IMG/VR virus record: IMGVR_UViG_3300020020_000038
Coordinates: 1-53,478 of that record
Direction: 5' to 3' (one strand)
Source of the DNA: a virus
Lineage: Duplodnaviria > Caudoviricetes
DNA: 53,478 nt
Part shown: positions 21,943 through 47,093 of the stretch, piece after piece
Position numbering within the stretch: position 1 is the stretch's first letter
Layout: every line of letters begins with the position of its first letter
Program-made: the position numbers and the translations under genes
Notes under the pieces: model-generated
Told to the model about the DNA's origin: nothing
Seen by the model: only the letters and a program-made list of their open reading frames with translations
The model's database searches: none

Positions 21943-23133
21943 TTACCGCCCAGAAACCGCCTGCGGGCGCCAGGCACGCTCGATTTCGACGGCTTCGGCC
22001 CACACTTCAGCCGTCCGCCAGGCGTTCCCTTCGACCGTCAACCGGCCGGCCACCTCACGACCCGCTGCCGACTGCTCCGCACGGAGCGCCGGGTCCCGGA
22101 CGAGGGACCGCAACGCCCGCAGCCAGTCTTTCGGCTTGGCAGCCAACGCGCCGCAGCCGAGCGCGGCGAGACGCTGGTACTCGGGGCGGGGCGACGCAAC
22201 CCACGGCACCCCCGCCGCGGACAGCTCCAGCGGTTTGAGCCAGGACTTGGCCTCGTTGAACCGGGACTCCGCCAGCGGCGCGACACCGACGCCGAGCTGG
22301 GCGACGGCTTCGATCCAGCCGTCGTACCCGATCGGACCGGTCATGGGGACTTCCACCCCCAGCTCACGGTCGGCCCCGGTGGAGTCACCGACGACCAGGA
22401 ACCGGCCGCCGTCGCGCAGTAGAGACGCGACAGCGCCGCCCATGACGGCGAGATCGCCGGGATGGGAGTGGGTGGAGCCGGGCCAACCGACGAGATCGGA
22501 GTCCTCGTGCGGGGTGTCAAGGAACCGGGCCGGGACGTAGTTCTCGATGACCCGGGCGTTCCCCCGTCCGTAGCGGCCGGCGAGGGCGGGCGTGGAGACG
22601 GTGGTGAGGGTGGCGGAAGCGGCAGCTTCCTTGGCGGCGAGCCACGAATGACGAGGGAACGACCCGAGGAACTTGACGTACAGGTCGAGGGCGAGCCGGT
22701 TGAGCATGGACTGGGACAGGGCGTCAGGATCGCGGCCTTCGGCACGGAGCCGGGTGAGGACCATCTCAGCGATGTGTTGCCGGGTGGAGTCGGACTCGTA
22801 GGACCAGAGCCGACCCGAGCGCCGATCGGGGTGCATCATCACCCACGCGGGATTGGCCGGATCGATGTGGGACAGATCATCGTCGAGGTCGACGACGACG
22901 GCGACACCCTTGGCACGCCAGAACGGGATAGCGGCGGCGACGTCGGGGACGGTCGGCCGTTGGAACACGAGCAGATCGGCGTCCTCCGGGCAGTGGGCTT
23001 CGATGACGGCGTCGCCTTTCATGATGACACGCAGCCCGGTGTCGGCGTCCTTGCGGGGTTCGTTGATGACGACTTCGATGTCAGGGTGAGCCTCGTGGAT
23101 GGCGCGGGCAGGCCAGATCAGGCGGACATTCAA
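21943..23133 (-). CDS. GT-B (GT4-like) glycosyltransferase with detached N-terminus
   Basis: VFQR, DLDDDL, TVSTPALA, VGWPGS.SHPGDL, GVAPL..FNEAKSWLKPLE..GVPWVAS. The original start peptide at 23130..23177 is out of frame. Confidence 0.8.
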   Translation of the reverse strand: MNVRLIWPARAIHEAHPDIEVVINEPRKDADTGLRVIMKGDAVIEAHCPEDADLLVFQRPTVPDVAAAIPFWRAKGVAVVVDLDDDLSHIDPANPAWVMMHPDRRSGRLWSYESDSTRQHIAEMVLTRLRAEGRDPDALSQSMLNRLALDLYVKFLGSFPRHSWLAAKEAAASATLTTVSTPALAGRYGRGNARVIENYVPARFLDTPHEDSDLVGWPGSTHSHPGDLAVMGGAVASLLRDGGRFLVVGDSTGADRELGVEVPMTGPIGYDGWIEAVAQLGVGVAPLAESRFNEAKSWLKPLELSAAGVPWVASPRPEYQRLAALGCGALAAKPKDWLRALRSLVRDPALRAEQSAAGREVAGRLTVEGNAWRTAEVWAEAVEIERAWRPQAVSGR

Positions 23134-23173
23134 TGGCCGCACGCCCAAAGGTCGGCAGGCCAGACATATACCT

Positions 23174-23695
23174 TCATCGTGCGGCAGGCTCACCCGCCAC
23201 GACGGAACCCCCTTCTGCGGAGGCGTTGTTGAGGCGAGCGAACTCACCCCACGCGGCCTCCGCCGCTCGATCGTAGGCATCAGCGGCCTCGGCTTCCGTT
23301 CCGAAGGCCCCCAGGTACCGCGTGCGGCCGTCGATGTGAATGTGGGAGACCCACCGATTGTGAACACCGTTGCGCGATTTGATCGAGACGCCCTTGTAGC
23401 GGGAGGTGCGACCCCGCTTGCGATTCGGCCCAGCGTTGGCCCGGTTCTGCGCCTTGGACGCGAAGCGCAGGTTGGAGGTCCGATTGTCGAGAGGGTCGCC
23501 GTTCTCATGGTCGACACGTTGATCAGGCCCAGCGCCAGCGATGAGACGGTGGAGGAACAGGAACATCTGCCCACGCATCGCCGCCACGTAGCCCTGAGCC
23601 GTGAGCTTCCAGACGAACCCGGCGACCAACTCGCGGTCAGCGGCGTCGACTACAGCCCGGACCCCATCACCCAGTTCGATCCAATGGTCGGACAT
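23174..23695 (-). CDS. HNH-AP2 homing-type endonuclease
   Basis: LHRLI..VDHENGDPLDNRTSNLR, SRYKGV, YLGAF..AADAYDRAA..GEFARLN. Confidence 0.9.
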   Translation of the reverse strand: MSDHWIELGDGVRAVVDAADRELVAGFVWKLTAQGYVAAMRGQMFLFLHRLIAGAGPDQRVDHENGDPLDNRTSNLRFASKAQNRANAGPNRKRGRTSRYKGVSIKSRNGVHNRWVSHIHIDGRTRYLGAFGTEAEAADAYDRAAEAAWGEFARLNNASAEGGSVVAGEPAAR

Positions 23696-23726
23696 TTCGG
23701 CCAACATAGCACCCGACCGCACGCGT

Positions 23727-24935
23727 TCATCCGATCACCTCGAAGCGGGGGCAGGGCACGACCAGCTTGCCGCCAGCGGCGAGGTAGGCGGCTTCCCGTT
23801 TGGTGAACTCCGTCAGGAACTGCCAGGGCAGCACGAGCGCATACTCCGGGTGGGCGGCACGCATCGCCGATTCGGGCCAGATCGGGATGTCGGTGCCGAC
23901 GGTACGCAGCCCGTACTTCTGGGGTTGCCGTTCGGCGATCCCTTGGATGAGAGACGAGTCGAGCCCGAAGAACTGCAACAGAGTGTTGCCCTTGGTGGAG
24001 GCGCCGTAGCCCCAGACCTTGTCGCCGCGGCGGGCAGCGGAAGTCAGGAACCCGGAGACGTCGGCGGCGAGGACGTTGACGGCGTGCCAGAACGCCATCC
24101 ACGGGTCGGGCGTGTTGACGGCGGTCCACAGTTCCTCGGCGAGCAAGGCGTCGAGGCGGAACTGGCCGACGTCGCGCCACGGTTGGGAACCGATCTTGCG
24201 GACGTCGGCGATCTCGTGGGTGGCGAACACGCGCAGCGATCCGCCGTTGACGGTGTTCAGTTCGGCGTCGAGCACTTGGAACCCGAAGGCCCGCAGCGTG
24301 TCGGTGAGGGTGGTGAGGGAGTAGTAGCGGGCGTGCTCGTGGCAGATGGCGTCGAAGGCGAGCTGGCGGAGCATGAGCGGGGCATAGGCGAGTTGGATGA
24401 CGAACACCCCGTCGGCGGCAAGCATTTGACGGACCGCCCACAGGAACGGCCCGGGGTCCATCAGGTCGTAGAACATGGCGGCGCAGGTCACGACGTCGGC
24501 CGGCCCGTACTTGTCGACGATCCGGTCGGCGACATCCAACGTGAACGGCTCTTGTACGACGAGGTCAGCGTGGCGTTCGCACTCCACCCGGAACGAGTCA
24601 TCGGCGGGGTCGACCCCGACGCGCTTCGCCTCGTCGGACACGTAGGACAGGAGGGTGCCGTCGTTGGAGGCGATGTCGACCCACACGTCGTAGCCGACGA
24701 CTTGCTCGACGGCCATGACGATGTCGTGCAGCTCGAACCGCATCGTCTGGTTGACACCGGACCGATACCAGTAGCGGCCCCACATCAGCTCGGCGGGCGG
24801 CTGGGCGGCGAGGTGCACGAGGCCGTCGCCATCCATCTGCATTTGGAGCGGGAACGGATCGGCGCGAGGAACCTCGTCGAGGGCGAGGAAGTCCGAGACG
24901 TACAGGTCACCGAGGGAGAACAAGTCAGTCGTCAT
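23727..24935 (-). CDS. NDP-sugar C-methyltransferase-like SAM-dependent methyltransferase
   Basis: YWYRSG, DIASNDGTLL, FDAICHEHARYYSL, NGGSLR, GYGASTKGNTLLQ, LVLPW.F. Confidence 0.88.
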   Translation of the reverse strand: MTTDLFSLGDLYVSDFLALDEVPRADPFPLQMQMDGDGLVHLAAQPPAELMWGRYWYRSGVNQTMRFELHDIVMAVEQVVGYDVWVDIASNDGTLLSYVSDEAKRVGVDPADDSFRVECERHADLVVQEPFTLDVADRIVDKYGPADVVTCAAMFYDLMDPGPFLWAVRQMLAADGVFVIQLAYAPLMLRQLAFDAICHEHARYYSLTTLTDTLRAFGFQVLDAELNTVNGGSLRVFATHEIADVRKIGSQPWRDVGQFRLDALLAEELWTAVNTPDPWMAFWHAVNVLAADVSGFLTSAARRGDKVWGYGASTKGNTLLQFFGLDSSLIQGIAERQPQKYGLRTVGTDIPIWPESAMRAAHPEYALVLPWQFLTEFTKREAAYLAAGGKLVVPCPRFEVIG

Positions 24936-24960
24936 ATCGGGCGTAGTGTAATCTAGGTTT

Positions 24961-25935
24961 ATGGCCAGAGTGTTGATCATCAATCACGGCGGATCGACCG
25001 TGTGCGGCATCCACGACTTGGGTTCGAGGATGGCGATGCGGCTCCGCGACGAGACCGACTTGCACGTCGGGTACGCGGCGTGCTCGACGGCGGACGAGTA
25101 CCGGAAGGCGCGTGCCGACCATGACCCGGACGCCGTGATCGTGAATTACCGGGCGGACCTGGCGCCGTGGTGGAGGCAGGTCGCTCACGAGCCGGGCGGG
25201 GTCCGGTGGGCGGTGGCGCACAACTACGAGCCCGGGAACCTTGTGCAGCACGCCCAGACGATCCGTAGCCACGGCTTCGATCGAGTCCTGGCGCTCGACC
25301 CCCCGTTGTACGCCGGCACCGCTTGGGCCGAACACGGGGTGGACATCGTCGGGCGGCCACTCCCACCGACAGCCAGGACAGTTCCGGGAGACGGCCCGGC
25401 GCGCATCGGGACGTTCGGGTTCGCCTTCCCGCACAAGGGGTTCGTCGAGGTGGCCCGCGAGGTCAACATGACGCTCGCCGAGGGCACGTTCGATCTGCAC
25501 ATGCCGGAGGCATGGTTCAACGGCGCCGAGGGGCGGCCGTTGTACGGGCCGGCGATCCTCGATTCGTGCCGGGACCAGATCGATCACGGAGGCCGGATCA
25601 CGTTCCATCACACGTCGAACCACCTGCCGTCGCCTGACCTGGTGGACAGGCTCGGCAAGAACGATGTCAACATACTCCTGTACGCGCCGGGCCAGCCCGA
25701 CGCCGGACTGTCGTCGGCACTCGACTACCTGATTGCGGCGCGCCGGCCGGCGATCGTGACGGATTGCGCCATGTTTCGGCACGGACTCCCGCACGTCGCG
25801 GTTTGGCCGGCCGTCACGTTGCGCGACGTCCTCAACCATCGGGAGCAGTGGGAGCGACAGGCGACAGCGTTGTGGTGGGCGCACACCGGCCGATTCTCCA
25901 GCGACATCGAGACGGTCCTTGACCGATGGGCGTGA
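24961..25935 (+). CDS. GT-B-like glycosyltransferase
   Basis: CGIHDLG, IGTFGFAFPHKGF, GLSSALDYLIAARRP.IVT..MFRH. Confidence 0.7.
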   Translation: MARVLIINHGGSTVCGIHDLGSRMAMRLRDETDLHVGYAACSTADEYRKARADHDPDAVIVNYRADLAPWWRQVAHEPGGVRWAVAHNYEPGNLVQHAQTIRSHGFDRVLALDPPLYAGTAWAEHGVDIVGRPLPPTARTVPGDGPARIGTFGFAFPHKGFVEVAREVNMTLAEGTFDLHMPEAWFNGAEGRPLYGPAILDSCRDQIDHGGRITFHHTSNHLPSPDLVDRLGKNDVNILLYAPGQPDAGLSSALDYLIAARRPAIVTDCAMFRHGLPHVAVWPAVTLRDVLNHREQWERQATALWWAHTGRFSSDIETVLDRWA

Positions 25936-26060
25936 GCGACGACGAGTGCGTTTGCGGGCACCCCCACGTCTGGCACACGCTTGACGAGACACGTTGCCAG
26001 TTCCATTGCGGCAACCCTGAACGATGCCCATGCACCGGATACGAGGAGGCCCAGCGATGA
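25932..26060 (+). CDS. Small Cys/His-rich protein (42 aa)
   Basis: CVCGH...H..C..C...CPC..Y; GTGA and ATGA overlaps. Confidence 0.6.
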   Translation: MSDDECVCGHPHVWHTLDETRCQFHCGNPERCPCTGYEEAQR

Positions 26061-26275
26061 TCGGACTACCACACAGCGAAGGCGCAGCGATCCACCGGCG
26101 CCCACCAAGCGAAGTGATGCGCGCCACCGTCGACCTGGAGCACGCCTGGAGTCACCCCAAAGTGACCATCGTCCCCGCCCGACGCCGCAAACCCCGCCAA
26201 CGCTGGTGCGCCCACTGCGCTGGCAATCACGCCGAGACCGAATGTCCGAGCCGACCTGAACGGCCCGACCGATGA
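26057..26275 (+). CDS. Small protein with CCHC-like knuckle
   Basis: CAHCAGNHAETEC; ATGA overlaps. Confidence 0.55.
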   Translation: MIGLPHSEGAAIHRRPPSEVMRATVDLEHAWSHPKVTIVPARRRKPRQRWCAHCAGNHAETECPSRPERPDR

Positions 26276-26910
26276 CGTGGTACAGCCAGGCCGGACAGGA
26301 CAAGTGGGTGAGTGAGCAGATGCGAGCCTTGACCGGACGGAGCACGGGATGGTTCGTGGACGTCGGCGCCTACGACGGAATCTCCACGAGCAACACGTAC
26401 GCCTTGGAGCAGGCCGGCTGGCAAGGCTTGTGCGTCGAGCCCGGCCCGAGCTTCGAACAACTGAAGATGAACCGGAGTTGCGCCGTCACACGGCAGGCAG
26501 CATCAAACTTCACGGGAGGCGTCCGATTCGACGGGATGAGCGTCATCGCCGACGATGGAGCACCCGTGCACGGCGAGAGCTACGTGCCGTGCGCCACCCT
26601 CGACTACCTGATGGACAGCGCCGGCATCCCACACGTCGTCGACTACCTGTCGATCGATGTCGAGGGCCACGAACCCGAAGTGCTCGACGGCATCAACTTC
26701 GCCCGCCGACACTTCCGGTTCATCACCATCGAACACAACGCCTACCGAGACGGCCCAGCCCTAAAGACGGCGATCCACGACCACTTGACCGCAGCCGGAT
26801 TCATCCGGGCAGTCGACAACGCCGGATGCGTCGACCCGTGCCCGCCACCGGCCTACCCCGGGTGCCCGTTCGAGGACTGGTACATCAACCGGACCGTCCG
26901 CCGAACGTAG
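26272..26910 (+). CDS. FkbM-family methyltransferase
   Basis: YSQAGQD, FVDVGAYDG..SNT, GWQGLCVEP, DYLSIDVEGHE, IEHN, EDWY. Confidence 0.9.
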   Translation: MTWYSQAGQDKWVSEQMRALTGRSTGWFVDVGAYDGISTSNTYALEQAGWQGLCVEPGPSFEQLKMNRSCAVTRQAASNFTGGVRFDGMSVIADDGAPVHGESYVPCATLDYLMDSAGIPHVVDYLSIDVEGHEPEVLDGINFARRHFRFITIEHNAYRDGPALKTAIHDHLTAAGFIRAVDNAGCVDPCPPPAYPGCPFEDWYINRTVRRT

Positions 26911-26912
26911 CT

Positions 26913-27644
26913 CTACTTGCCGAACGTGGCGGCGCGCCGTTCGTACGTGTGCCGATCACCGCGCATCAACGCCCCCGTGCCGTGGAGGTCACGAGATTCG
27001 TGTGAGATGACGCCGGGTAGCAGCCGCTCCGGCTTGCCTGAGACGACACACCACGCCTTCACCGACCGCTCGGCCAGATGGCCGGCCCAGATGTTGTCGG
27101 CCCACACGTCGAAGAGCGGCTCGAACCAATCCATGAATAGTTCAAGGTCTTCCATTCGCCACGCCATCCCCTGAGTCGACGGCCACGCATCGAACGGGGG
27201 AAACGACGGATCAACCCCGACCGTAGCCATCCCAGCGTTGTACGCCTCGGCGAACCCGGCAATGGCGAGCATCCAGTTCCCGGCCGACGCATAGCCAGCA
27301 TTGAACGCGACCGGGCCGGGCGCCTCGGCGAGGAGCCGGTCGCAACGATCGACGAGCCCGTCGTCGAGGATCGTCATGTCGTCCTGCAACAGGATCACGT
27401 TGTCGGCGGCAGTGAGGACGTACTTGGCGAGGATGAACCAACCGGTGAAGTCGTAGAACGCGGGGAGATGCTCCCGGTTGCCGGCCCATTCCCGAGCGAC
27501 GATCGCGTTGAGGCCGGAGAGACGGTCAACGGGGCGAGGCCCGACGAACACGTAGCGGTGGGGCACCCGGGCGAACCGGGCCTCAGCCTCCCGCTCGATC
27601 AGCAAGTCTTGACTATGGATGGTCACGAACACCTCGACCGTCAT
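26913..27644 (-). CDS. Putative GT-A-like glycosyltransferase
   Basis: VFVTIH start strand, ILLQDD (DxD-like), GHLAERS; context of glycan genes. Confidence 0.5.
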   Translation of the reverse strand: MTVEVFVTIHSQDLLIEREAEARFARVPHRYVFVGPRPVDRLSGLNAIVAREWAGNREHLPAFYDFTGWFILAKYVLTAADNVILLQDDMTILDDGLVDRCDRLLAEAPGPVAFNAGYASAGNWMLAIAGFAEAYNAGMATVGVDPSFPPFDAWPSTQGMAWRMEDLELFMDWFEPLFDVWADNIWAGHLAERSVKAWCVVSGKPERLLPGVISHESRDLHGTGALMRGDRHTYERRAATFGK

Positions 27645-27659
27645 GCCACCATTATCGCC

Positions 27660-28319
27660 GTGACGCGGCTCAGCCACTGGTATCACGTGTACGCCGACGG
27701 GAACTGGGCGCAGCCCGTCACCGAGCATTGCCAAGCCCTTTGCAAAGGCGGACTCCTCGACGCGCTGGAGGGATGGTTCGTCGGGTTCGTCGGCAGCGAC
27801 GACAACATCGCCGCAGCCAGGTGCACACTCGATGTACTAGCGCCCGGCTACACCGTCGTAGCCGCGGCGCCGGTTGGGTGGGAGCAGGAGACGTTGGAGC
27901 CGCTCTGGGCGTGGACTCAGGACCATGACGGATTGGTCAGTTACGGCCACACGAAAGGCTCGGCGCACCCGAACCCGATCAATGATCCGTGGCGGCGCTG
28001 CATGGAGTACCACTGTTTCGTTGAGTGGCGGCGACCGGTGGAGGCGTTGACGGAGGGCGGCGCGTCTATCGCCGGGTCGCATTGGATCAAGGGCGGACCG
28101 TCATCCGTGCCGGGCTACGGGACGGGAGGCATGTTCGGCGGGAACTTCTGGTGGACGAGAGCCGAGCTGCTCCGTCAGAACCCGGCACCGGACCGGACTT
28201 CGAGGATGCACGCCGAGCATTGGCTCGGGCAACTGTCGGAGGTGACGCCGTTGACCGACGCCACGGTGTGCGATTTGAATACGGCGAGCATCGGGCGAGG
28301 CTGCCCCGACTGGGTCTAG
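27660..28319 (+). CDS. Putative glycan-related enzyme (HTKG/GNFWW type)
   Basis: EQETL..LW, YGHTKG, WRRCM, FGGNFWW, AEHWLG; context of glycan genes. Confidence 0.5.
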   Translation: MTRLSHWYHVYADGNWAQPVTEHCQALCKGGLLDALEGWFVGFVGSDDNIAAARCTLDVLAPGYTVVAAAPVGWEQETLEPLWAWTQDHDGLVSYGHTKGSAHPNPINDPWRRCMEYHCFVEWRRPVEALTEGGASIAGSHWIKGGPSSVPGYGTGGMFGGNFWWTRAELLRQNPAPDRTSRMHAEHWLGQLSEVTPLTDATVCDLNTASIGRGCPDWV

Positions 28320-28621
28320 AGGTAGACGATGACGGTGTCGGAACCCTCTTCGGGCCAGACAGGCGTCGACAAGTCGAGGAACACCGGATGCCACGTGAGG
28401 TCCCACGAACCCAACTCGGCGGTGGGCAGCCAGCCGGACAGGTCGAGCGTCACGATACGCGCCTCGGGATCATCGATTTCCCCGGGCAGCACGACCGCCG
28501 CTCCGGTGGTGCAGTGCTTGCAGAGGCCGGTGACAGCGGACGCGGTGGCGAGCGTCAGGAGGCCGTGGAGTTGCCCGGTGAGCGAGTCGACCCCGGTGCG
28601 ATGCCGCCGCCACGTCGTCAT
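28316..28621 (-). CDS. Small BppU/Ig-like virion adaptor protein
   Basis: GSWDLTWHPVFLDLSTPVWPEEG pattern; last gene of fibre module B. Confidence 0.5.
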   Translation of the reverse strand: MTTWRRHRTGVDSLTGQLHGLLTLATASAVTGLCKHCTTGAAVVLPGEIDDPEARIVTLDLSGWLPTAELGSWDLTWHPVFLDLSTPVWPEEGSDTVIVYL

Positions 28622-30699
28622 ACCGTGGACGTCCTACGAACCCCGTCGACCCGGGACGTCAACCGTGCCATGTCGAGTCGGGTGGTCAACCGCACCCCAT
28701 CGATCCTAGTCGTGTAGCGCGGCCCGCCCGTGTAGATCGGCGCCGACGACGGAACGGTCGGCGTGACGACGTCGGTGATCCCGACCGGATCGACGAAGGC
28801 CCGCACGGCATCGTGGACGATTTCGATGGAGTCGACGAGACCGACGACATCAACGATGTTGGCTGCGCCGGCCCCGGCGATCTCGACCGAGTCGGTGATC
28901 CCGACCGGATCGACGGCGGAGACCGCCGACCCGACAGCGATCTCGACCGAGTCGGTGATCCCGACCGGATCGACGGCGGAGACCGCTTGGCTGAGGGACA
29001 CATCGACAGAGTCAGTGATCCCGAGAGCGTCGGCGACAGAGCGAGCGACCGACAGAGCGACGTCAACCGAGTCGGCGATGCCGATGACGTCGACGTGTGA
29101 GCGGACGATGACGGAGGCGGCGTCAACGGCGTCGGTGATCCCGATGTTGTCGGCTGGGTTGATCGCCCCTTCGCCGGAGGACTCGACCGTGACGGAATCG
29201 GTGATCCCCACCACGTCCGTTTGCGGGCGGACGATCGCACTGGCGGCATCGACTGTGTCGGTGATCCCGATCTCGTCGGTCTCTGCGACCACCTTGCTGA
29301 TTACGACCGCAGCGGAGTCGGTGATCCCCACCCCGTCGACCGCGGCCAGGGCGTTGCCGACGGTGAGCGTTGCCGTGTCGGTGACACCGATGTTGTCGAC
29401 GGCCGCTACGGCGTTACCGACCGCCACCGTCGTTGCGTCGGTGATCCCGACTGGGTCGACGACGTCGAAGGCATTACCGACGGCGAGCGTTGCCGTGTCC
29501 GTGATCCCGACGACATCGACCGGGGATTGGGTGAGGCTGAGTTGTAGCGTCGCCGTGTCCGTGATCCCGACATCGTCAGCGTCGGCATCGATCGTGACGG
29601 CAAGCGCCACGTCAACGTCTTCGGTGATCCCGACTGGATCGACTGCCGCGATGGCGTTCGCCACGACGAGCGCCACCGAGTCGGTGATGCCGACGTTGTC
29701 GGTGACCGCTTCGAGGAGCCCAAGCTCCGTTGTGATCGAATCGGTGATCCCGACGGTGTCGGTGACGGCGACGACGTTGTCGACGACGAGCGTCGCGGCA
29801 TCGGTGATGCCGATGTTGTCGACTGGGGTGAGGTCGGTGTCGCCGCCAGGAACGAACGTGGTCGCCGAGTCGGTGATCCCGACCGCTTCGGCGCGTTGTA
29901 GTTCGTAGTCCTCGGCGACACCCGAGTCGCCGATCCCGATGAGATCGACAGGGTTGACGCCCCGGCCGATGACGAGAGCCACCGAGTCCGTGATCCCGAC
30001 CTCATCGGTCTCGGAGACGGTGTGGGCGATAGCGGACGACGGATGGACAGCGAGCGTGAACGCCCGCCAAGCGAACGATACGTCGGTGCTGAACGCCCCG
30101 GCGTCCTCTGACGCTGCGTTGAGTTGTCGAGACGCTGCCGCAATCAAGCCACCGAGGTTTGTGCCTGCGGTACCGCAAGTCTTCTGGAGCGGCGGGCTCG
30201 GCGTGTAGTTGGCTGGCGAACCGGCGTTGGCCCATGTGTCATCGTCGGCTTCCTCGCCAGCCGATCCGAAGAAGGTGATCCATAGGTAGTCCTTGGCACC
30301 ACCGGTCGGGGTGCAAGTCGTGGCGTTGGGAGCAGTCGAGGTGCCGGTCGCCAACGTCGACAGTTGCGGAGCCTGGGTTGCCGGGTCCTCAGCACCCGAA
30401 ATCTGATATGTAATCGTGGCGTCACGGACAGCCACCGTTGACGTGAACGTGACCGTCGCGCCTTCCGCCCCATTGGACACGCGATACCACACGGCCATGC
30501 CGCTCGGGACGGCCTCATCGAGAAGTTCGGTCCATCCGGCGAGCGTGTTGAACGATGCAGTCGACGCTGGGGTGCCCTTGTCCAACAGGACGAGAATCAG
30601 GTTCCCCGAGACGAGACTCGCGGGCAAGCTGACGACGTGGGACGTATTCGCGGTGGCTGTCGCCGACTCGTTGGTCGTAACGACGACGGGGAAGGCCAC
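28618..30699 (-). CDS. Structural repeat protein: beta-rich N-domain plus ~21 D-x-V-G-I-T-D repeats
   Basis: Repeats counted in the translation, period mostly 20 aa; near-identical 60-bp DNA units around 28880-28990. Confidence 0.85.
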   Translation of the reverse strand: MAFPVVVTTNESATATANTSHVVSLPASLVSGNLILVLLDKGTPASTASFNTLAGWTELLDEAVPSGMAVWYRVSNGAEGATVTFTSTVAVRDATITYQISGAEDPATQAPQLSTLATGTSTAPNATTCTPTGGAKDYLWITFFGSAGEEADDDTWANAGSPANYTPSPPLQKTCGTAGTNLGGLIAAASRQLNAASEDAGAFSTDVSFAWRAFTLAVHPSSAIAHTVSETDEVGITDSVALVIGRGVNPVDLIGIGDSGVAEDYELQRAEAVGITDSATTFVPGGDTDLTPVDNIGITDAATLVVDNVVAVTDTVGITDSITTELGLLEAVTDNVGITDSVALVVANAIAAVDPVGITEDVDVALAVTIDADADDVGITDTATLQLSLTQSPVDVVGITDTATLAVGNAFDVVDPVGITDATTVAVGNAVAAVDNIGVTDTATLTVGNALAAVDGVGITDSAAVVISKVVAETDEIGITDTVDAASAIVRPQTDVVGITDSVTVESSGEGAINPADNIGITDAVDAASVIVRSHVDVIGIADSVDVALSVARSVADALGITDSVDVSLSQAVSAVDPVGITDSVEIAVGSAVSAVDPVGITDSVEIAGAGAANIVDVVGLVDSIEIVHDAVRAFVDPVGITDVVTPTVPSSAPIYTGGPRYTTRIDGVRLTTRLDMARLTSRVDGVRRTSTV

Positions 30700-30700
30700 G

Positions 30701-31486
30701 TCAGATCACCCTCGTGATGGCGAGACGCACACGCGGCGGCGGCACCACCACATCGGCCGCATCAGTGATCCCGACGTTGTCGACCGGATTGACTTCCTCC
30801 GCATCGCCCGCGCCAGCGGCGACCTCGATGGCAACACCTGCAAACGAGAACACCGCCACCGACGCGCCGGCCCTGATGTCATTCCACAGCACCGAGGCAG
30901 AGGTTGACCCGGTGCGTTGCTGGAACTGTGCGCCACCAAAGAACGACGCTGACGAGTCGACCTGGGCGTCCTCAGTCCAGCCGGTCCCACCGTCGATGTC
31001 GTTGAGTCCGGCGTCCGTGTCCACCACACAACCGGCCAGGACGACACTCGACGCCGCCGGAGCCCCGGACAACGTGATCGTCTTAGCCCCGTCAGTCGTG
31101 TTATCGGCGAGACCGATGACGGCATCGATCGGGTCACCAGTGTCGAATCCGGTCACCTCGTACACGGCATAGAACATGCCGTAGGTCGACGATGCCCCCG
31201 TGCCGATCGTGATCGTCGTAGACCCGCCCACTGCGACCGCTGTGAATGACTCGCCGGACGCCTTATCGGAGACACCTTGGTAGGCGGATGCTTGCGTGGC
31301 GAACGTGTGTGACGGCGCGGCACAGGTCAACGCACCCGCCGCGGAGCTACCCATGATCGCCATCAACTGGACGACAATCAAACTGCCCGCCGTGAAAGAG
31401 ATTGCACCCAACGCCTCCGACGCAGCGACAGGCGACGTCGCCAGGTCTGCCGAGCCGGACGCCTTGAGTGTCGCTACGACGGCCAT
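30701..31486 (-). CDS. Beta-rich virion accessory protein with one terminal VGITD repeat
   Basis: A/G/S/T-rich; ends NPVDNVGITDAADVVVPPPRVRLAITRVI. Confidence 0.7.
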   Translation of the reverse strand: MAVVATLKASGSADLATSPVAASEALGAISFTAGSLIVVQLMAIMGSSAAGALTCAAPSHTFATQASAYQGVSDKASGESFTAVAVGGSTTITIGTGASSTYGMFYAVYEVTGFDTGDPIDAVIGLADNTTDGAKTITLSGAPAASSVVLAGCVVDTDAGLNDIDGGTGWTEDAQVDSSASFFGGAQFQQRTGSTSASVLWNDIRAGASVAVFSFAGVAIEVAAGAGDAEEVNPVDNVGITDAADVVVPPPRVRLAITRVI

Positions 31487-31487
31487 G

Positions 31488-32825
31488 TCATGCAGCCTCT
31501 ACCACAAGCACCCAGTCGCCGTCACCGGCAGCGTTCGTCCCGAGCGACCCGAACGATTGCGAACCGGTCGTAGCGAACACCCCGAGAGACGTCGCGGCCA
31601 GGTTGACGGGGTCGACCTTGAACACTTCACAGTTGGTCGGGGCAAGCATGCCGACGTTGAGACCGACAGTGGCCGCTCCACCACTGGGCCGGTAGACGAC
31701 AGCGAGCGTCCCGCTGGTGGCAGCGGTGTCAACTCGGGCACCGATCAACAGGCCACCCGACCCACGCCCCGTGGTGACGAACGTAGACCCCAACGGCAGC
31801 ATCGTGGACCAGCGGGTGCCGAGACCGATGATGAATTGGGCGAACATCTCCAGCTTCAATGAGCCGGGCGAATCCAGATTCGATTCCCACGTCCCGGTCC
31901 ACGCGATCCCCCACGAGGCGTCCTCGAAATGCCAGATCGGGTTGTTCCCGAACAGGACGTAGCAAGCACCACCGACGAACGGCCCCCACATCTGCGACCG
32001 CAGATACGGCTCGTCACCGTATTGATCCTCATGATCAAAGTCGGCTTCGTAGTGCCCCTCGAAGAACCCGACCGGAATCGCCGACGCCGCGTACGCCGTC
32101 TCGGTGTCGGCAGCCGGAGTGTTGCCGTAGTCGTAGATGGTGTCGAGGTCGAACGTGATCCCCGGATAGAACGTCGAACCGAGCGAGCCGCTGAGACCAC
32201 CCGGAGCAACCAGGAAACCACTGTTGGCTCGTAGCGCCGTAGCGACGTTCGCTTGGCGATCCTCCAAGGTGGCGTCGGGGTCGAAGTCGTGCCCGATCAG
32301 CCAGATCAGGTTGGGGCGATCGGCGTACCGTTGGGCGAGCGACGTCGCATAGGTGGACACCTGCCCGTTGGTCGCCGCCGCCAGCTCGGTCCGCCAACCG
32401 TCGCCGAGGTTGAACCCGAGGTACGTCATACACACGATGACCGTGAACCCCAGGCGTTCCATCTCATCGAAGATGAAGTCGATGTGTTCCCAGTACGGCT
32501 CGTTCAACGACGACTGGTACGCGGTCCCAGTGAACGGCAGGTCACCGTTGACGTTGCGTTCGGGCGGGGTCTGGTTGGAGAACCCGCCCTCGGGAGCGTT
32601 GAACAGACTGAGGTTGAAACCCTTCGCCGCCCGATCCTCCAGGTAGGTCGTTACCTCGGCGGCGGTGAGTTGCACCCCGAGCGACCACGCCGTGTCAGCG
32701 ACACCAAACCAGGGTTGTCCGTTCTGATCGACAAGGTAGGTGCCGTCACCCGAAACCGCCGTGGCGAACGGCAACCCAGTCTCGATGAACCTCAGATGGT
32801 GATCTGTGCGGACGGTCACGGCCAC
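31488..32825 (-). CDS. DUF4038/apiosidase-like glycoside hydrolase
   Basis: VSGDGTYLVDQNGQPWF..DTAW, YLEDRAAKGFN, RYADRPNLIW..G.D, EGHYE, DWVLV. Confidence 0.75.
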   Translation of the reverse strand: MAVTVRTDHHLRFIETGLPFATAVSGDGTYLVDQNGQPWFGVADTAWSLGVQLTAAEVTTYLEDRAAKGFNLSLFNAPEGGFSNQTPPERNVNGDLPFTGTAYQSSLNEPYWEHIDFIFDEMERLGFTVIVCMTYLGFNLGDGWRTELAAATNGQVSTYATSLAQRYADRPNLIWLIGHDFDPDATLEDRQANVATALRANSGFLVAPGGLSGSLGSTFYPGITFDLDTIYDYGNTPAADTETAYAASAIPVGFFEGHYEADFDHEDQYGDEPYLRSQMWGPFVGGACYVLFGNNPIWHFEDASWGIAWTGTWESNLDSPGSLKLEMFAQFIIGLGTRWSTMLPLGSTFVTTGRGSGGLLIGARVDTAATSGTLAVVYRPSGGAATVGLNVGMLAPTNCEVFKVDPVNLAATSLGVFATTGSQSFGSLGTNAAGDGDWVLVVEAA

Positions 32826-32837
32826 AACCGTGACCCC

Positions 32838-33419
32838 CTATGCGCCTAGAAGATCATGACTCCACGTGATCGCCAGAGTGTCGCTCGCACCCTTGTCGAC
32901 GGCGCTGAACACGACACGGGAGATTGTGTCGGCCGCCGCACCTGCGCCCGTGCCGATCGGGGTGAGATTCGTGATCACAGCCTCCGTGATCGCCGAGTTT
33001 GTCGCCGTGCCAGCCGCCCACGTCGTCTTCCACTGGATGCGTCGAGACGAACCGTTCAACGCCGAGGTGGGGAACCCGCCGTCGATCGCCACGTTCGAGC
33101 CAGAGATGTGCGCAACGATCGCCGCGCCGGCACCGGTCTTGGCCGCCGCGGTCGTGCTGGTGCCGAGCCGCATCCCGGTCACCTGGTCAGGCGGCGAAGC
33201 GATGCCGGCGGCCCGTTCGCCGTAGTACTCGTCGCCGACCTGGGTGACCAGGTTCCGGATAAGTTCCAGGCTGATGATTTCGAGACCGGCAGCCTTACGG
33301 CGGGGACGGAGCAACGCCACTTCGACGAGGCCGGCGATCCCGACCGAGTCGTCGTGGCCACGGGCACGGTCGAGCGTCAAAACGACCTCGTCGCGGATAC
33401 CACTGGGATCAACGTTCAC
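32838..33419 (-). CDS. Putative fibre/filament structural subunit
   Basis: NLVT.VG, MRLGT, AITEAVI.N, SRVVFSAVDKGASDTLAITW; AGGAGG RBS. Confidence 0.65.
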   Translation of the reverse strand: MNVDPSGIRDEVVLTLDRARGHDDSVGIAGLVEVALLRPRRKAAGLEIISLELIRNLVTQVGDEYYGERAAGIASPPDQVTGMRLGTSTTAAAKTGAGAAIVAHISGSNVAIDGGFPTSALNGSSRRIQWKTTWAAGTATNSAITEAVITNLTPIGTGAGAAADTISRVVFSAVDKGASDTLAITWSHDLLGA

Positions 33420-36236: not shown

Positions 36237-37303
36237 GTCAGAACCCTCCGCAGAGTGTGGGCCATCGGGCCGGACGGAGACAGCGGGAGCGACCACGACT
36301 CCTCCACCCAGCGCAGATCGAACACTTCCATGACGGTGTAGCCGTCGTGGCGGGGATCGGGAGGACCAGCGAACGAGACATGCTCCACGAACGTTTCAGC
36401 CTTGCGGTGGGAACCGGTCGACAAGGCGAGCGTCCGGGCAGCCTCATCGATTTGCGATTGAGACCCGATGCCTTGGACGTTGAACACCTCGACGATGCGG
36501 AACCCGCGGGCATGGAAGGAATGTGGAGCGCCAGCCGGGACGTCGTACACACCGACGAACGCCTGAGCAGCCGAATCCGACGAGATGGCGATGGTCCGGT
36601 TGACGGCGTGGAGCAGGTCACTGGTGGTGACAGTCGTCGCTGCGTACACGGAGTGCTCATGAACGACCTCAGGTTCCACCGCGTCGGGGTCGACGATGCG
36701 TTGGACCCGGCACACGCCGTCATGGTCGAACCAGGGAGGATGCCACCCGACGTTGGTGGCGAGGTCGGTGATGATTTGGGTGCGGGACGTCCCGCCCGGC
36801 CAGGCCATCGGCGCGCCGACCGTCGCCGTTGCAGACTCGACGACAGAGGCGAGCCCCAACTCGTCGAGGATGTCGACGACCACCCCACGGACATCGGCGT
36901 CGGATTGAACACCGACCGTCCGGTCCATCGCCTGGTCGAGAATCAGTCCCTTGTCGACGAGGGTGCCGGACAGCGTTTCGCCGTAGCTGTAGCGAGGGTT
37001 CGAGGCGTCGGCGAACAGGAACACGCCGAGTGGATGTTCGGAGGCGTCCTCTAGGACCATGATCGGCCGCAACCGATCGGACAGAGGATTGACAGAGGCC
37101 CGATCGACCGGCGTGAGGTTGAGGTTCGCCATATCGCGGACAATCGTGCGGGACGTGTCGTGCGTGATGACGGGAGTCAGATCGTCACGAGCAGGGTTCA
37201 CCTCACCGATGAGCCGCTCGGCGTTGTCGAGCACCTCGAACCGGTACGCCGACGCCCGTTGGGAAACGCCACGCAGATCGAGAAGATCATGAGTTTGAGG
37301 CAT
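36233..37303 (-). CDS. Minor tail (hub/tip) protein, block B
   Basis: Actinophage tail-type motifs PLGVFLF, DKGLILDQ, WFDHDG, PDPRHD, W.LPL..M.HTLRRV. Confidence 0.7.
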   Translation of the reverse strand: MPQTHDLLDLRGVSQRASAYRFEVLDNAERLIGEVNPARDDLTPVITHDTSRTIVRDMANLNLTPVDRASVNPLSDRLRPIMVLEDASEHPLGVFLFADASNPRYSYGETLSGTLVDKGLILDQAMDRTVGVQSDADVRGVVVDILDELGLASVVESATATVGAPMAWPGGTSRTQIITDLATNVGWHPPWFDHDGVCRVQRIVDPDAVEPEVVHEHSVYAATTVTTSDLLHAVNRTIAISSDSAAQAFVGVYDVPAGAPHSFHARGFRIVEVFNVQGIGSQSQIDEAARTLALSTGSHRKAETFVEHVSFAGPPDPRHDGYTVMEVFDLRWVEESWSLPLSPSGPMAHTLRRVLT

Positions 37304-37743
37304 CAGGCACGCTGCTTCTGCCGGTAGCGCTTCCAGGCAGCCCGGGAGCACTCACGGCAGTGCCGAAGCCCTTTCGGGTCGACGTAAGTGTTGGCCCCGT
37401 CGTACGGATGCCCCTGAGGACAGCGCGTCTTGGCAGCATTCTGAGCGGCAAGAGTCAACGGTGACGCCAACAGATTCGCCCGATGGCTCGACGGCACCAA
37501 ATGAGCCGGGTTACAACACCGCCGATGCAGACAACCCTCCCCGCCAGCGCAGCCCGAACCGTTGTGACACGAGTGATCGAGAAGCGGGGGAGCCTCACCG
37601 TGCGTCAACATCCACGCCACCCGATGGGCCTGCATCGTTCGGCCCATCCAAACGACCTGCCCATACCCCCTGGACACTGCCTTGCCGGTGAACGGCCAAC
37701 ATTCATCCGCACCCTTGATTTCGACCCTGTCCCAGAACCGCAC
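37303..37743 (-). CDS. HNH endonuclease
   Basis: RFWDRV..ECWPF.G..GYG, AHRVAW, LDH.C, CCNPAHL, CPQGHPY..CREC. Confidence 0.9.
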   Translation of the reverse strand: MRFWDRVEIKGADECWPFTGKAVSRGYGQVVWMGRTMQAHRVAWMLTHGEAPPLLDHSCHNGSGCAGGEGCLHRRCCNPAHLVPSSHRANLLASPLTLAAQNAAKTRCPQGHPYDGANTYVDPKGLRHCRECSRAAWKRYRQKQRA

Positions 37744-38845: not shown

Positions 38846-38922
38846 CAGGTCACCAGACAGACCCAACCACCGACCACCGCCACGATGCCTAGCAACGTGT
38901 AGGTGACGGCACGGGCGATCAT
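38845..38922 (-). CDS. Possible 25-aa hydrophobic peptide
   Basis: MIARAVTYTLLGIVAVVGGWVCLVT; ATGA and TGATG coupling exactly fill the gap. Confidence 0.45.
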   Translation of the reverse strand: MIARAVTYTLLGIVAVVGGWVCLVT

Positions 38923-40772
38923 GCGAACCGCACAGCGACCGACGGAATGTTCGACGCCACACTCGACGTCGCCGCCGGAGACGGCAAAGAGGTGCCGACC
39001 ACCGAACCACGGTTACGGCCAGCCCGCAAGTTGGTGCCGGCGACGGCGTTGGCTAGTGACGAGTTGACCCCGGCCCACGACCCCGAAATGACCCGCATCG
39101 TCGGTGTGCCACCCTGCACGAGCGCAGCGAAATGGTAGACCTCGCCACCGACCAACGCTTGACTGATCGTCAACTCCTGTGCCGTGGCTGAGCCGCCGTC
39201 GATCGTACCGGCGTCAAGCAGCAAAGTCGAGGCGGAGCCGGCGCCGTCGTCGTTGTAGATCCCTAGCGAGATGGTCGATGCGGCCGCCAATGTCGTCACC
39301 TCGGCACCGATCCGGTTCACCGTACAATCGATCGGCACATACACGCCGAACGTGTACAAGGTGCCGGCAGTCGTCACCGCTGTCGTCCGCGTCAACGGCA
39401 TTCCCCAATACTCGTTGGTTTTGCCGAACAGCGATGGCGCGATGCCGGACAGGTCCGCCGACGCCGGGGCTGCCGCCGGCAACTCCAACGACTCGATGCC
39501 GAGGGCGTGCCCGGCATCATCCATCGTGACGAACCCGGTAAGGCGCAGCGACCCGTTACCTGTCACCGTGAACAGGGTCGACACGTCGTAAGGGGCGTCC
39601 GCCGAGACGATGGCTAGGCCCTCGATGAACAGTCGGGACGATCCGCCGCCACCCGGCTGGACGGCGATCTTGGGGACGACCCCGGAAGGCGGGTTGACAC
39701 ACTTGACCTCGCTCATCGAGAACGTGCCGCCCAGATCGAACCGAACCCAGTAGGTGTCGGTGTGTAAGTCGTTCGCCGAATAGAGGACGTCACGCATCGT
39801 GATCATCGGCGGCGCCGACGACCCGGTGTTCGTGATCAGGAGACGTTGATATGACTCGACACGCATCCCGTTGAACGTGTTGTGTCCGGTCAAACCGACT
39901 TTGATGGCGGCTTCGCCGCCGGCGAACCCGGCACCGAACACGGCGGCCTGAGACGCCGAGTTGACGAGGCCGTAACGGATGCTTTGGATGCGCAGGTGAT
40001 AGACGTTGTGAGTCAGGTTGTTGCCGCCAGTCCCGTTGCCCAACACGAGACCTTCTTGGTAGCGGGCCGCCTCCCCGTCCTCCCACGCCCCATTCAAAAT
40101 GATGTGGTCGAACACGTCGTCGGACACGTCGGCACCGCCGACACCGGGTTTGCCGACCCGAAACGCGGTGACGAAATCGAGGTTGCGGACCGTGATGTTG
40201 CGGTAGCTGTTGGCCGTGTTCGACCGGGACGACCCGGCCGAATCCCAATAGGTGTAGAAGGCGTTGTCGACCTGCACCCCGGCCGAACCGGTGATCGTGA
40301 ACCCTTCGAAGAGCGAGTAGGCCGCCCCGTTGATGTCGAACACGGCGGCCATGTTGCTGTCTGCCCGCAACTCACACATGCCCTGCCCGATGATCTGTAC
40401 CCCGATCACGGACCGCACCGTGATCGGGGCGGCCAACAGGTAGATGCCAGCAGGTAGGACGACTCGACGGTTCGCCGTCCGCACGGTCGTCACCGGATCA
40501 CCCGGGCCGCAGGCTTCGTCGATCGCCGCCTGTAACGCCGCCGAGTTGACGGTGCCTGACGCGGCGGTGGAGAACCCGTAGGTGCGGGGGTCGATGTCGG
40601 TGTTGGCTGCTTTCCGTCCGGCCGGGGTCACCGCCAACACTGTCGATGTCCCGGCGATCGTCTCAGGGGTCGTCGCAAAGTTGAACTCGGGGTCCAACGC
40701 ATCGATCTGCGCCTGCAAATCGGCGAGTTCGGCAATGACCGATGACGAACTCGAGGAACGGACATTCAACAT
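38919..40772 (-). CDS. Tailspike-like protein, pectin-lyase-type beta-helix (putative depolymerase)
   Basis: DPRTYG..NSAALQAAID..VVLPAGIY..IIGQG, followed by a beta-helix-like region and a C-terminal beta domain. Confidence 0.7.
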   Translation of the reverse strand: MLNVRSSSSSSVIAELADLQAQIDALDPEFNFATTPETIAGTSTVLAVTPAGRKAANTDIDPRTYGFSTAASGTVNSAALQAAIDEACGPGDPVTTVRTANRRVVLPAGIYLLAAPITVRSVIGVQIIGQGMCELRADSNMAAVFDINGAAYSLFEGFTITGSAGVQVDNAFYTYWDSAGSSRSNTANSYRNITVRNLDFVTAFRVGKPGVGGADVSDDVFDHIILNGAWEDGEAARYQEGLVLGNGTGGNNLTHNVYHLRIQSIRYGLVNSASQAAVFGAGFAGGEAAIKVGLTGHNTFNGMRVESYQRLLITNTGSSAPPMITMRDVLYSANDLHTDTYWVRFDLGGTFSMSEVKCVNPPSGVVPKIAVQPGGGGSSRLFIEGLAIVSADAPYDVSTLFTVTGNGSLRLTGFVTMDDAGHALGIESLELPAAAPASADLSGIAPSLFGKTNEYWGMPLTRTTAVTTAGTLYTFGVYVPIDCTVNRIGAEVTTLAAASTISLGIYNDDGAGSASTLLLDAGTIDGGSATAQELTISQALVGGEVYHFAALVQGGTPTMRVISGSWAGVNSSLANAVAGTNLRAGRNRGSVVGTSLPSPAATSSVASNIPSVAVRFA

Positions 40773-46247: not shown

Positions 46248-47093
46248 TCAGCCGGTGTCTTTGCGTTGCAATAGTTCGTTCAGCTTCAACGCCGCCGCCT
46301 GGTCGTACTCGTCCGAGCCTGTGAGTTCGAACAAGAATGCCTTGAACAAGGCTTGTTGGAACCATTCCGACGCCGCCCCCGAGTTGAACTGGTCGACCGG
46401 TGGCGCCGACGTAACCGAGGCGAGAGTTTTGGAACTAACCAGCATGTCATCATCTCCAGAAGGCGGCGGGATTGGCGGGGGTTGGAGTGTTGACCCGGCA
46501 GCGGCAACGAGGCTGCGTAACGCAGCCACATCCCATGTGCCGGCACCGAGTGTCGGGTAGCCGTCAGCGGGCCCGAACGGATCAGACTTGCGGGTACCCG
46601 CCCAGCCTCGGTGGGTGGTGACGTCACGCATCGGATCGAGGCGAAGGCGGCGACACAACATGTTCATCAGGCGCAGGTAGGCGTCCATCTGTGGCCGCGG
46701 CCAACGTTCACCGACACCATTCGAGGCGGCTTCGATGGCGAACGCCATACGGTTACCCATCGAGGACGGGTCGAGCGGGATGACACCTTTCGATGTCGAC
46801 CACGGGGCGATGCCTTTGCCGTTCGTGTTTGAGGCGCCGGCTGTCCCGATGGTGACGACACCGGCCCGATCCAAGTGGACGTTGCCGATCGGTTTCGTCG
46901 TCGCGTTCTGCCACATGTAGGCGCAGTCGTTCTGCCATGTCGCATTGCTGGCCGTGTGATGGGCGACGATGCCCCACACTTGGTCGAATCCACCAGACGA
47001 CCGGGCCCGGGTCTCCCAGCCTGGATACTCACGGAACGCGATGCCCTCGGTGCGCAGCCAGTCGTCGAGATCGCGTAGCCAGATGGAACCCAT
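46248..47093 (-). CDS. Endolysin, amidase_2-like N-acetylmuramoyl-L-alanine amidase (A)
   Basis: GWETR, GIVAHHTAS, FAIEA, W...QMDAY, H..WA..RKSDP. Confidence 0.88.
   Translation of the reverse strand: MGSIWLRDLDDWLRTEGIAFREYPGWETRARSSGGFDQVWGIVAHHTASNATWQNDCAYMWQNATTKPIGNVHLDRAGVVTIGTAGASNTNGKGIAPWSTSKGVIPLDPSSMGNRMAFAIEAASNGVGERWPRPQMDAYLRLMNMLCRRLRLDPMRDVTTHRGWAGTRKSDPFGPADGYPTLGAGTWDVAALRSLVAAAGSTLQPPPIPPPSGDDDMLVSSKTLASVTSAPPVDQFNSGAASEWFQQALFKAFLFELTGSDEYDQAAALKLNELLQRKDTG

Follow-up and report, generated by a model that had tools for sequence, protein, structure and literature searches.

The virus record IMGVR_UViG_3300020020_000038 (Duplodnaviria; Caudoviricetes), a 53,478-bp IMG/VR sequence of a soil phage, with ~65% G+C and rated 59% complete, carries on its minus strand a cassette of five genes encoding, in order, p193 (33419-32838), p445 (32825-31488), p261 (31486-30701), p693 (30699-28618) and p101 (28621-28316). 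We refer to the whole 53,478-bp stretch as the window. p693 contains an array of ~20-residue units with a GITD core, and we find that the family of the small protein p193 travels with arrays of this kind in viral records. We think it rather probable that the cassette is a modular set of virion surface fibres of an Actinomycetota phage, in which p193 is a dedicated adaptor-like partner. An earlier interpretation made from the letters alone, which we call the sequence-only reading, had proposed an assembly templated by the repeats. Its repeats and its association of p193 with them have stood up to analysis, but its mechanism has not.

Association of p193 with GITD arrays

GITD-bearing viral sequences were identified by a DNA pattern of three in-register GITD cores. 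This found 33 stretches, and 27 of the records could be searched whole. A profile of the p193 family has a match in 17 of these 27 records, against none of 41 whole control records of the p693-head family with other types of repeat (seven of them at least 90% complete). p193 and the array lie on the same strand in all 17, separated by 423-4312 nt, and p193 is upstream in 15. The reverse census agrees. Among 11 viral p193 loci, with flanks of up to 10 kb per side, a GITD open reading frame (ORF) is present in eight and a single unit in a ninth, against none of the 41 head-family loci fetched as controls (516 kb); no other protein of the window is conserved in the 11. Several of the paired records are AT-rich, with L079 as low as 39% G+C, so that p193 and GITD are found together in phages far apart from one another. 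The data thus support a functional link of p193 with the repeat, and in this respect the assignment of the small protein encoded at 32838 to the repeat system was correct; the corollary that it binds each repeat individually was not upheld.

The fibres of the p693-head family that lack GITD have small neighbours of their own. ORFs of ~145 codons precede such fibres at L022:7570-7995, L029:3132-3557, L011:7326-7748 and L031:6739-7179, and further ones precede head-family fibres at L028:2724-3173, L037:7329-7781 and L032:7548-7979. Pfam matches to Gp80, which is fibre I of phage GP4, occur in small ORFs close to related fibres in L032 (the ~145-codon ORF itself), L013 (in a nearby ORF) and L084. 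The ~145-residue proteins show no homology to p193 by hhalign (probability 0.4%), and they may be analogous small partners suited to another type of stalk.

Wide distribution of the GITD stalk unit

The sequence-only reading counted about 21 D-x-V-G-I-T-D repeats at ~20-residue spacing in p693, and closer measurement confirms this. The regular expression [VILA]G[IVL][TAGVR][DE] finds 21 sites from residue 234 to 643, 12 of them exactly VGITD and 16 containing GITD. Of the 20 intervals between sites, 16 measure exactly 20 residues and the rest 19, 21, 22 and 23; at the DNA level Tandem Repeats Finder reports 60-nt periods within 28883-29522. We also built a 20-residue hidden Markov model (HMM) of the unit, using 400 of 851 units taken from outside proteins only, and compared it with every one of the 623 ORFs that the window has in six frames (78,001 residues). 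It matches p693 with E 6.6e-50 over 21 domains and p261 with E 6.1e-4, the next ORF having E 0.56 and p193 E 92. The units of p693 and p261 are real, and far above chance. p693 falls within the GITD family as we define it operationally, with at least three tandem units, a period of ~20 and the core D-x-[VIL]-G-[IVL]-T-D.

The unit is not confined to this phage. Searching with the repeat region through a word index gave 247 proteins at E<=1e-3 among 8000 scored, so that at least 247 metagenomic proteins, representing at least 247 clusters at 90% identity and ranging from 381 to 1213 residues, carry GITD. The commonest unit spacing is 20 residues in most of the 120 listed. The p693 head is common to just eight of these 120 by BLASTP, and 19 have a Pfam family according to a precomputed table, its position relative to the units being unchecked. 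The families among the listed proteins include LamG_3 (Laminin_G_3), GDPD, DUF4082, SGNH hydrolase, phytase, PhoD_N and Beta_helix. The number of repeats among relatives varies from zero to more than 20. Some proteins (P0001, P0024 and L045) are fusions with the layout head - unit - head - units, and a single-unit junction between two heads is also present in L049. No model in Pfam, PHROGs or NCBIfam matches the repeat. In the literature searched, the string 'VGITD' occurred solely in two unrelated papers, and searches on repeat stalks in actinobacteriophage tail proteins, or on 20-residue tail fibre repeats, found nothing relevant.

With these distributions, the GITD unit is best explained as a mobile stalk module of variable length that recombination places behind many different heads, and this would be why p693 and p261 have the motif in common. 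It would then not be an invention for docking, as the sequence-only reading had supposed for VGITD. Nor does anything point to one subunit per repeat, or to p693 as a ruler or core.

AlphaFold2 modelling of p693 with an 87-row alignment gives an all-beta head with a predicted local distance difference test score (pLDDT) of ~96, while the stalk has pLDDT 40-68. At this low confidence the monomeric stalk is modelled as a solenoid-like, closed structure. VIA-align superimposes it on CsgA (8c50) with Z 19.7 and a root mean square deviation (rmsd) of 9.6, on MpAFP (3p4g) with Z 16.1-16.4 and rmsd 4.7-5.2 over 267-272 residues, and it also resembles tailspike beta-helices, although high Z scores come easily for repeat folds according to the program's own warning. 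The Asp, Gly and Thr residues conserved in the units are reminiscent of turns that bind metal.

Head and tail of p693

The invariant EEADDDTW motif of the head alignment corresponds to E149-W156. Searching with p693 led to 41 viral contigs, 40 of which match the head (the first ~220 residues, at 38-67% identity), while L042 matches through the repeat region alone (27%). GITD is absent from all 41 loci fetched in this way, L042 included. Short relatives of the head (230-260 residues) consist of head, proline-rich linker and basic tail and nothing else, and long relatives carry other ~20-residue arrays, for example of HGHTADNV-, SSGTE- or TFAPTV-type. One of the loci (L015:3708-5423) has a single ORF with a divergent copy of the head followed in tandem by a canonical p693-type head. 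Another relative (L007, from 8001 onward) has 20-residue repeats that each hold H-G-H-T-A-D. His-x-His ladders bind metal in the tip of the T4 fibre, and by analogy such stalks may be metal-stabilized.

The atlas neighbours of the head are viral hypothetical proteins. Structural matches to the head are weak, with Z no greater than 5.6, and include a chain of the Tuc2009 tripod and perforin APC-beta domains; residues 4-100 align with tripod chain 5e7t_H at just Z 5.6, rmsd 3.4 and 87 residues. This weak match is the sole link to the small Ig/BppU-like anchor that the sequence-only reading placed in the fibre. The profile of the head finds noise alone among PDB sequences (E>0.6), and Foldseek with the whole p693 model finds no PDB entry at E<=1e-3, just weak jelly-roll and concanavalin rows. 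p693, p261 and p101 have no curated family in Pfam (E<=0.01), PHROGs (1e-3) or NCBIfam (0.01), a single NCBIfam match lying far under its cut-off. This null result lowers the case for membership of a named family, not that for a fibre-like function.

At its C-terminus p693 ends with the mini-repeats TTRIDGVRL, TTRLDMARL and TSRVDGVRR. Two to four such mini-repeats (8-12 residues, mostly basic, following a proline-rich stretch) close many GITD proteins and stand-alone heads, as seen in P0020, P0036, P0070, P0071, P0073, P0116, L035 and L042; those of P0070 are of a similar TTRLD-type. The mini-repeat tail could be an attachment peptide.

A modelled fold of p193 like that of tail and baseplate proteins

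The p193 family has 1455 proteins at E<=1e-3, of which the 120 listed are 56-79% identical, and corresponds to PHROG 5417, annotated as of unknown function. No Pfam family matches p193 at E<=0.01, Gp80 (PF23140) included, and its family profile has no match among PDB sequences at E<=1. The AlphaFold2 model has a mean pLDDT of 79.4, with the residues of the N-terminal arm low at 52-62. Its best match by VIA-align is chain 9h4p_BD of the HFTV1 tail (Z 10.9, rmsd 2.9, 127 residues aligned; Foldseek E 2e-4), followed by the baseplate chain 9euf_b of phi812 (Z 6.9) and the fibre/adaptor entry 8jou_a of GP4 (Z 6.9, rmsd 3.9, 115 aligned). There is a weaker likeness to neck and connector proteins, with Z 5.2 for Sf14 and also with the Bas63 connector. 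The globular domain as modelled thus resembles the fold class of virus tail, baseplate and adaptor parts. The HFTV1 baseplate hub bears three fibres (PMC12494034).

Among cultured phages p193 has a single relative, gp18 of BcepGomr (30% identity, E 4e-5), whose gene is flanked by the tape-measure region on one side and a gene annotated as tail fibre on the other.

The sequence-only reading saw two degenerate units at the N-terminus of p193. For this protein itself the likeness is at chance level with the unit HMM, and in the AlphaFold model, where residues 1-28 have low confidence, DDSVGIAGLV, the second 'unit', continues into the strand (29-39) with which the globular domain begins. By BLASTP, residues 3-35 do align in register with two units, with 15 of 33 identical and E 0.002 in a single comparison. 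The family gives a clearer signal. An N-terminal arm is present in 80 of 120 relatives, and the profile of the arm-bearing proteins aligns in register with a three-unit profile by hhalign over 25 columns (probability 82%, P 1e-5, score 25.5). Among 200 column permutations the mean score is 5.6 and the maximum 10.6, so that none reaches 25.5, and the reversed alignment scores 13.7. From these sequence comparisons the unit likeness appears marginal in p193 itself and real as a trait of its family, with about one unit rather than two. By eye, a unit-like arm is present in three of the eight GITD-positive loci and in one of the three GITD-negative loci. Table 1 gives the positions of these elements and of the remaining features of the cassette.

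Table 1. Positions and character of the proteins of the cassette and their parts in the window
Feature	Position	Strand	Description
p193	32838..33419	-	Small, strongly conserved protein; globular beta domain at residues 29-193, with a fold like that of tail, baseplate and fibre-adaptor proteins; conserved neighbour of GITD fibres
p193 N-terminal arm	33336..33413	-	Residues 3-28; resembles about one GITD unit and the start of the next
p445	31488..32825	-	Predicted apiosidase-like (GH140-type) glycoside hydrolase domain and C-terminal beta domain
p261	30701..31486	-	Head (residues 1 to ~225), one GITD unit, proline-rich stretch, short basic tail
p261 GITD unit	30728..30787	-	Residues 234-253, PVDNVGITDAADVVVPPPRV; unit HMM E 6.1e-4
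p693 head	30025..30699	-	Residues 1-225; two beta-sandwich lobes with the invariant motif EEADDDTW
p693 stalk	28726..30012	-	Residues 230-658; 21 units of ~20 residues
p693 C-terminal tail	28621..28725	-	Proline-containing linker and three basic nine-residue mini-repeats
p101	28316..28621	-	Small ORF with a 4-nt overlap at the p693 stop; no family found

p261, p445 and p101

p261 was described by the sequence-only reading as having one copy of the motif at its C-terminus (PVDNVGITDAA, residues 234-244), and the unit HMM agrees in finding one domain; there is one unit and no array. The domain lies at about residues 238-251 of the stop-to-stop ORF, which begins four codons upstream of the called start. 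The head of p261 belongs to a family of its own, with 1026 relatives at E<=1e-3 in a profile search of 1.84 billion representatives at 50% identity. Members of the family stand alone or are fused to many types of repeat; of the best 150, 63 are short forms and 87 long ones. Just two of the 150 have the GITD unit, namely p261 and a protein with an identical VNPVDNVGITD junction, P0324. In the three closest relatives of p261 the unit falls exactly in an alignment gap; the unit of p261 is therefore an insertion, which speaks against the suggestion that motif-tagged accessory domains plug into the repeat protein.

Three other origins of the resemblance between p261 and p693 were considered and set aside. 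Comparison of the two heads by hhalign gives a probability of 11%, so there is no detectable homology between them and the p261 head is not shown to be a divergent paralogue of that of p693. The p261 unit has at most 75% identity with any p693 unit over a 36-nt core, similar to the identity between units inside p693 (mean 55% over 60 nt), and is not a recent copy from there. A frameshift fusion of p261 and p693 was likewise rejected; their junction GAGG...TGA C GTG is an ordinary coupled restart with a Shine-Dalgarno-like GAGG, and no slippery run is seen.

p445 matches PF13204 with E 1.8e-43 (149.8 bits, cut-off 26.5), PF12904 weakly, and the apiosidase structure 8t9w in the PDB with E 1.3e-15, as well as 3kzs/5msy. 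It is a predicted GH140, or apiosidase-like, glycoside hydrolase. In the protein P0255 a head of p261-type is fused to a hydrolase of p445-type (31% identity over 429 residues, E 4e-39), and p261 and p445 are therefore functionally tied.

p101 has no match in the libraries and no relative in the loci fetched. Its membership of the module is by position alone.

A probable modular fibre with an adaptor-like partner

Taken together, the parts suggest how the cassette would work. p693 would be a fibre, with an N-terminal two-lobed beta-sandwich head, a stalk of 21 units and a tail of basic mini-repeats. The head would be the distal, binding part, and probably a glycan- or metal-binding tip, because it is a lectin-like beta-sandwich, because varied lectin and enzyme heads are found on the same stalk and because of the hydrolase fusion. 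The GITD array would act as a rigid spacer of freely evolving length, most likely a beta-solenoid-like rod, and the 21 units would make a rod ~10 nm long if each formed one coil. p261 would provide a second, unrelated head in the same layout with a single unit, and p445 a glycoside hydrolase of a kind found fused to p261-type heads in other phages. Attachment is probably through the end that bears the proline-rich linker and the basic mini-repeats, because even the stand-alone heads retain both. From its fold class and conserved neighbourhood, p193 would be a conserved adaptor-like structural protein that works with stalks of GITD-type and would be in physical contact with the fibres.

There are points that weigh against this explanation. 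Presence in the virion is argued from genes for every member of the families, and p693 and p261 have no homologue in a cultured phage among 50,697 phage records. Confidence in the model of the stalk is low (pLDDT 40-68), and repeat folds readily give high Z scores. The fibre may also be trimeric. p193 is not exclusive to GITD, which lies within 8 kb of it in three of 13 genome-contig loci (all of them from Actinomycetes or metagenome-assembled genomes (MAGs)); beta-helix proteins lacking GITD lie downstream of the p193 homologues in L046 and L053. p193 is absent from ten of the 27 GITD records, although five of these are fragments of <12 kb; one is rated 92% complete. There are near-duplicates among the 17 paired records, the matched stretches of G013 and G016 being identical. 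The location on the virion is also ambiguous, as genes for portal, protease or major capsid protein lie within 5 kb in 6/32 GITD loci and in 6/35 head-family loci (L016, L022, L028, L030, L031 and L040).

Other explanations

The ambiguous location leads directly to the possibility that these are capsid decoration fibres, in which the basic C-terminal tails bind the capsid, the lectin-like heads are held off the shell and p193 is an anchor at the capsid or neck. The GITD loci with portal, prohead protease or major capsid genes are L063, L064, L073, L077, L085 and L087. In several of the six head-family loci no other gene separates the capsid gene from the fibre gene that follows it, and a terminase gene lies within 5 kb in two further ones, L005 and L019. 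Positions behind the gene for the major capsid protein, or between those for portal and protease, are seen in L022, L028, L031, L040, L030, L063, L064, L073, L077 and L087. The retention of proline-rich linker and basic tail by stand-alone heads would fit such a role, as would the weak likeness of p193 to neck and connector proteins. However, the cassette of the window is contiguous with tail genes and far from the presumed head genes, the best fold matches of p193 are tail and baseplate parts, and BcepGomr gp18 is encoded in a tail module. Tail-module neighbours are also found in L012, L038, L013, L032, L059 and L084. We regard a capsid location as improbable, but as the strongest of the alternatives.

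There is less to recommend docking by complementation of coils, whereby the lone unit of p261 and the arm of p193 would stack on a free end of the p693 solenoid, capping or extending it, and heads and adaptor would plug together non-covalently. This is the form in which the idea of the sequence-only reading survives best. One unit cannot form a solenoid alone, yet the arrangement head - linker - one unit - proline-rich stretch recurs in p261 and P0324, and single units lie between two heads in the fusions described above. The fit of the family arm of p193 to the unit profile and the conserved p193-GITD neighbourhood would both be explained. Were it true, interchangeable lectin and enzyme heads would be carried on a common stalk without covalent fusion, the proteins of head - unit - head - units layout would represent this assembly in covalent form, and virus appendages would have a new principle of assembly. 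Against this, the unit is so rare among the best representatives of the p261 family, the arm is missing in 40 of 120 p193 relatives and, by eye, in five of the eight loci that have GITD fibres, and p193 itself is at chance level with the unit HMM. Single units are more simply explained as recombination scars at the junction of head and stalk, and we consider docking of this kind distinctly unlikely.

The model of the sequence-only reading as written, with p693 as ruler or core, p193 on every repeat by strand complementation and an Ig/BppU-like anchor, is very unlikely. In its favour are the tight linkage of p193 with GITD arrays and the poor prediction of the stalk when modelled alone. But the monomer is already modelled, at low confidence, as a closed, self-contained beta-solenoid and not as an array of incomplete folds, and p193 is modelled as a complete beta domain of tail- or adaptor-like fold; the head of p693 is also modelled as complete. 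p193 homologues show no change where the neighbouring fibre has a small number of units (L047, L048, L050 and L052, with 3-7 motif matches) or none, and a Pfam scan of 42 window proteins found no PapD-, chaperone- or usher-type family. Least probable of all is that the proteins are not virion parts and are secreted or placed at the cell surface during infection, for example as glycosylated repeat proteins that alter the host envelope. Sugar-modifying genes adjoin the cassette, which also comes after membrane-protein-like ORFs. Yet by eye p693, p261 and p193 have no N-terminus like a signal peptide, the genes are found inside structural modules in relatives, and the fold of p193 is that of a virion part. 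We retain the virion fibre with an adaptor-like partner as the best explanation.

Comparison with known systems

Fibres whose shafts are built of repeats are familiar among viruses, as are the adaptors of such fibres. The triple beta-spiral of adenovirus and reovirus, and the long and short fibres of phage T4, use short beta repeats with a glycine turn to set the length of an appendage. They are obligate trimers, anchored by the N-terminus and with a receptor-binding knob at the C-terminus. p693 is similar in having short beta-rich repeats of a number that varies among relatives, but differs in that its head is N-terminal and its C-terminus is a short basic peptide. The rods of region IV of the Ca2+-dependent antifreeze protein MpAFP (3p4g) and of the curli subunit CsgA (8c50) are comparable in another way, as they have tandem units of ~19-23 residues that are modelled with one coil each. 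There is, however, no sequence relationship with p693 and no Pfam match, and the p693 stalk is joined to a head domain and a tail peptide in what is a structural cassette of a phage.

T4 Hoc and the phi29 head fibre are capsid decoration fibres whose spacers are Ig-like domains or coiled coil. The present fibres would be laid out like them, with the binding domain at the distal end, repeated modules as spacer and an anchor of small size, and many relatives of the present fibres are encoded next to the major capsid gene; they differ in having no 20-residue units, and no homology was detected. The closest likenesses of p193 (HFTV1 9h4p_BD, GP4 8jou_a and phi812 9euf_b) are in the same fold class at a sequence identity of 3-14%, and BcepGomr gp18 is, like p193, encoded just upstream of fibre genes. 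What would set p193 apart from adaptor and baseplate proteins is its putative specificity for a GITD stalk, together with the unit-like arm, for which we found no described counterpart. In the libraries and literature searched, the GITD family, the head-first layout with a mini-repeat tail and the pairing of p193 with GITD arrays appear to be undescribed.

Genomic context

At the right end of the minus strand the window begins with a truncated tape-measure gene (PF10145), followed by several tail-associated genes that include an Amidase_2 protein, a pectate-lyase-like protein and ORFs matching PHROG tail and tail-fibre families. A 335-residue ORF without family and two ORFs with hydrophobic stretches, which are membrane-protein-like, separate these from the cassette on the same strand. 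Tape measure, tail genes and cassette are all on one strand, and the head genes must be far off. Past the cassette lie methyltransferase and weakly glycosyltransferase-like genes, and then replication genes.

Beside the cassette, in the stretch 21943-28319 (both strands), the sugar-modifying genes are a weak GT1-like ORF (21943-23574) and those for a C-methyltransferase (23727-24983) and an FkbM methyltransferase (26272-26910). Glycosyltransferase or sugar-modifying families occur within 5 kb in 8/32 GITD loci, one of them a giant-virus MAG record, against 2/35 control loci. Such neighbours were noted at L061, L065, L067, L072, L079, L081 and L083. By position, L061, L079 and L083 each have a GT1 or GT4 gene immediately upstream of their p193 homologue, and the C-methyltransferase of L081 is 37% identical to that of the window. 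The fibres may be glycosylated, to judge from these neighbours.

The tail region also has several envelope-active domains, namely Amidase_2 (46248-47093), an opposite-strand BNR/sialidase-like ORF (47358-48617) and the pectate-lyase-like protein (38919-40772); with p445 they make an unusually rich set of glycan- and wall-degrading functions. An HNH endonuclease ORF (37303-37743; PHROG 826, E 6e-37) is found in the run of tail genes, and the tail ORF after it begins within it. The long ORFs 26913-27734 (-) and 27468-28319 (+), which face each other on the two strands, share ~270 nt and have no family match; translation of the plus-strand one probably starts further downstream. A tRNA scan of the whole window found none.

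Nucleotide and protein searches of the 50,697 phage records found no match to the region, p693 or p261, although the low-complexity filter could have masked the repeats. The matches on bacterial genome contigs are from Actinomycetes, including Embleya, Streptomyces and Pseudonocardiaceae. The exact sequences of p261 (P0121) and p193 (P0125) are also present on a contig of 75,198 bp, so a longer version of this phage genome is public.

Significance

Our analysis defines a widespread stalk repeat that has gone without annotation and without a matching model in three curated libraries. It also defines a general layout for such fibres, head - variable repeat stalk - mini-repeat tail, that is used by at least two large families of head, and a two-gene module of p193 family and GITD fibre that is kept across phages from 65% to 39% G+C. 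These provide a handle for annotating 'hypothetical' proteins in the phages of soil and of Actinomycetota, and name a concrete pair, p193 and the GITD fibre, whose interaction can be tested. The arrangement suggests how heads and glycan-degrading enzymes may be swapped between phages, with a bearing on host range.

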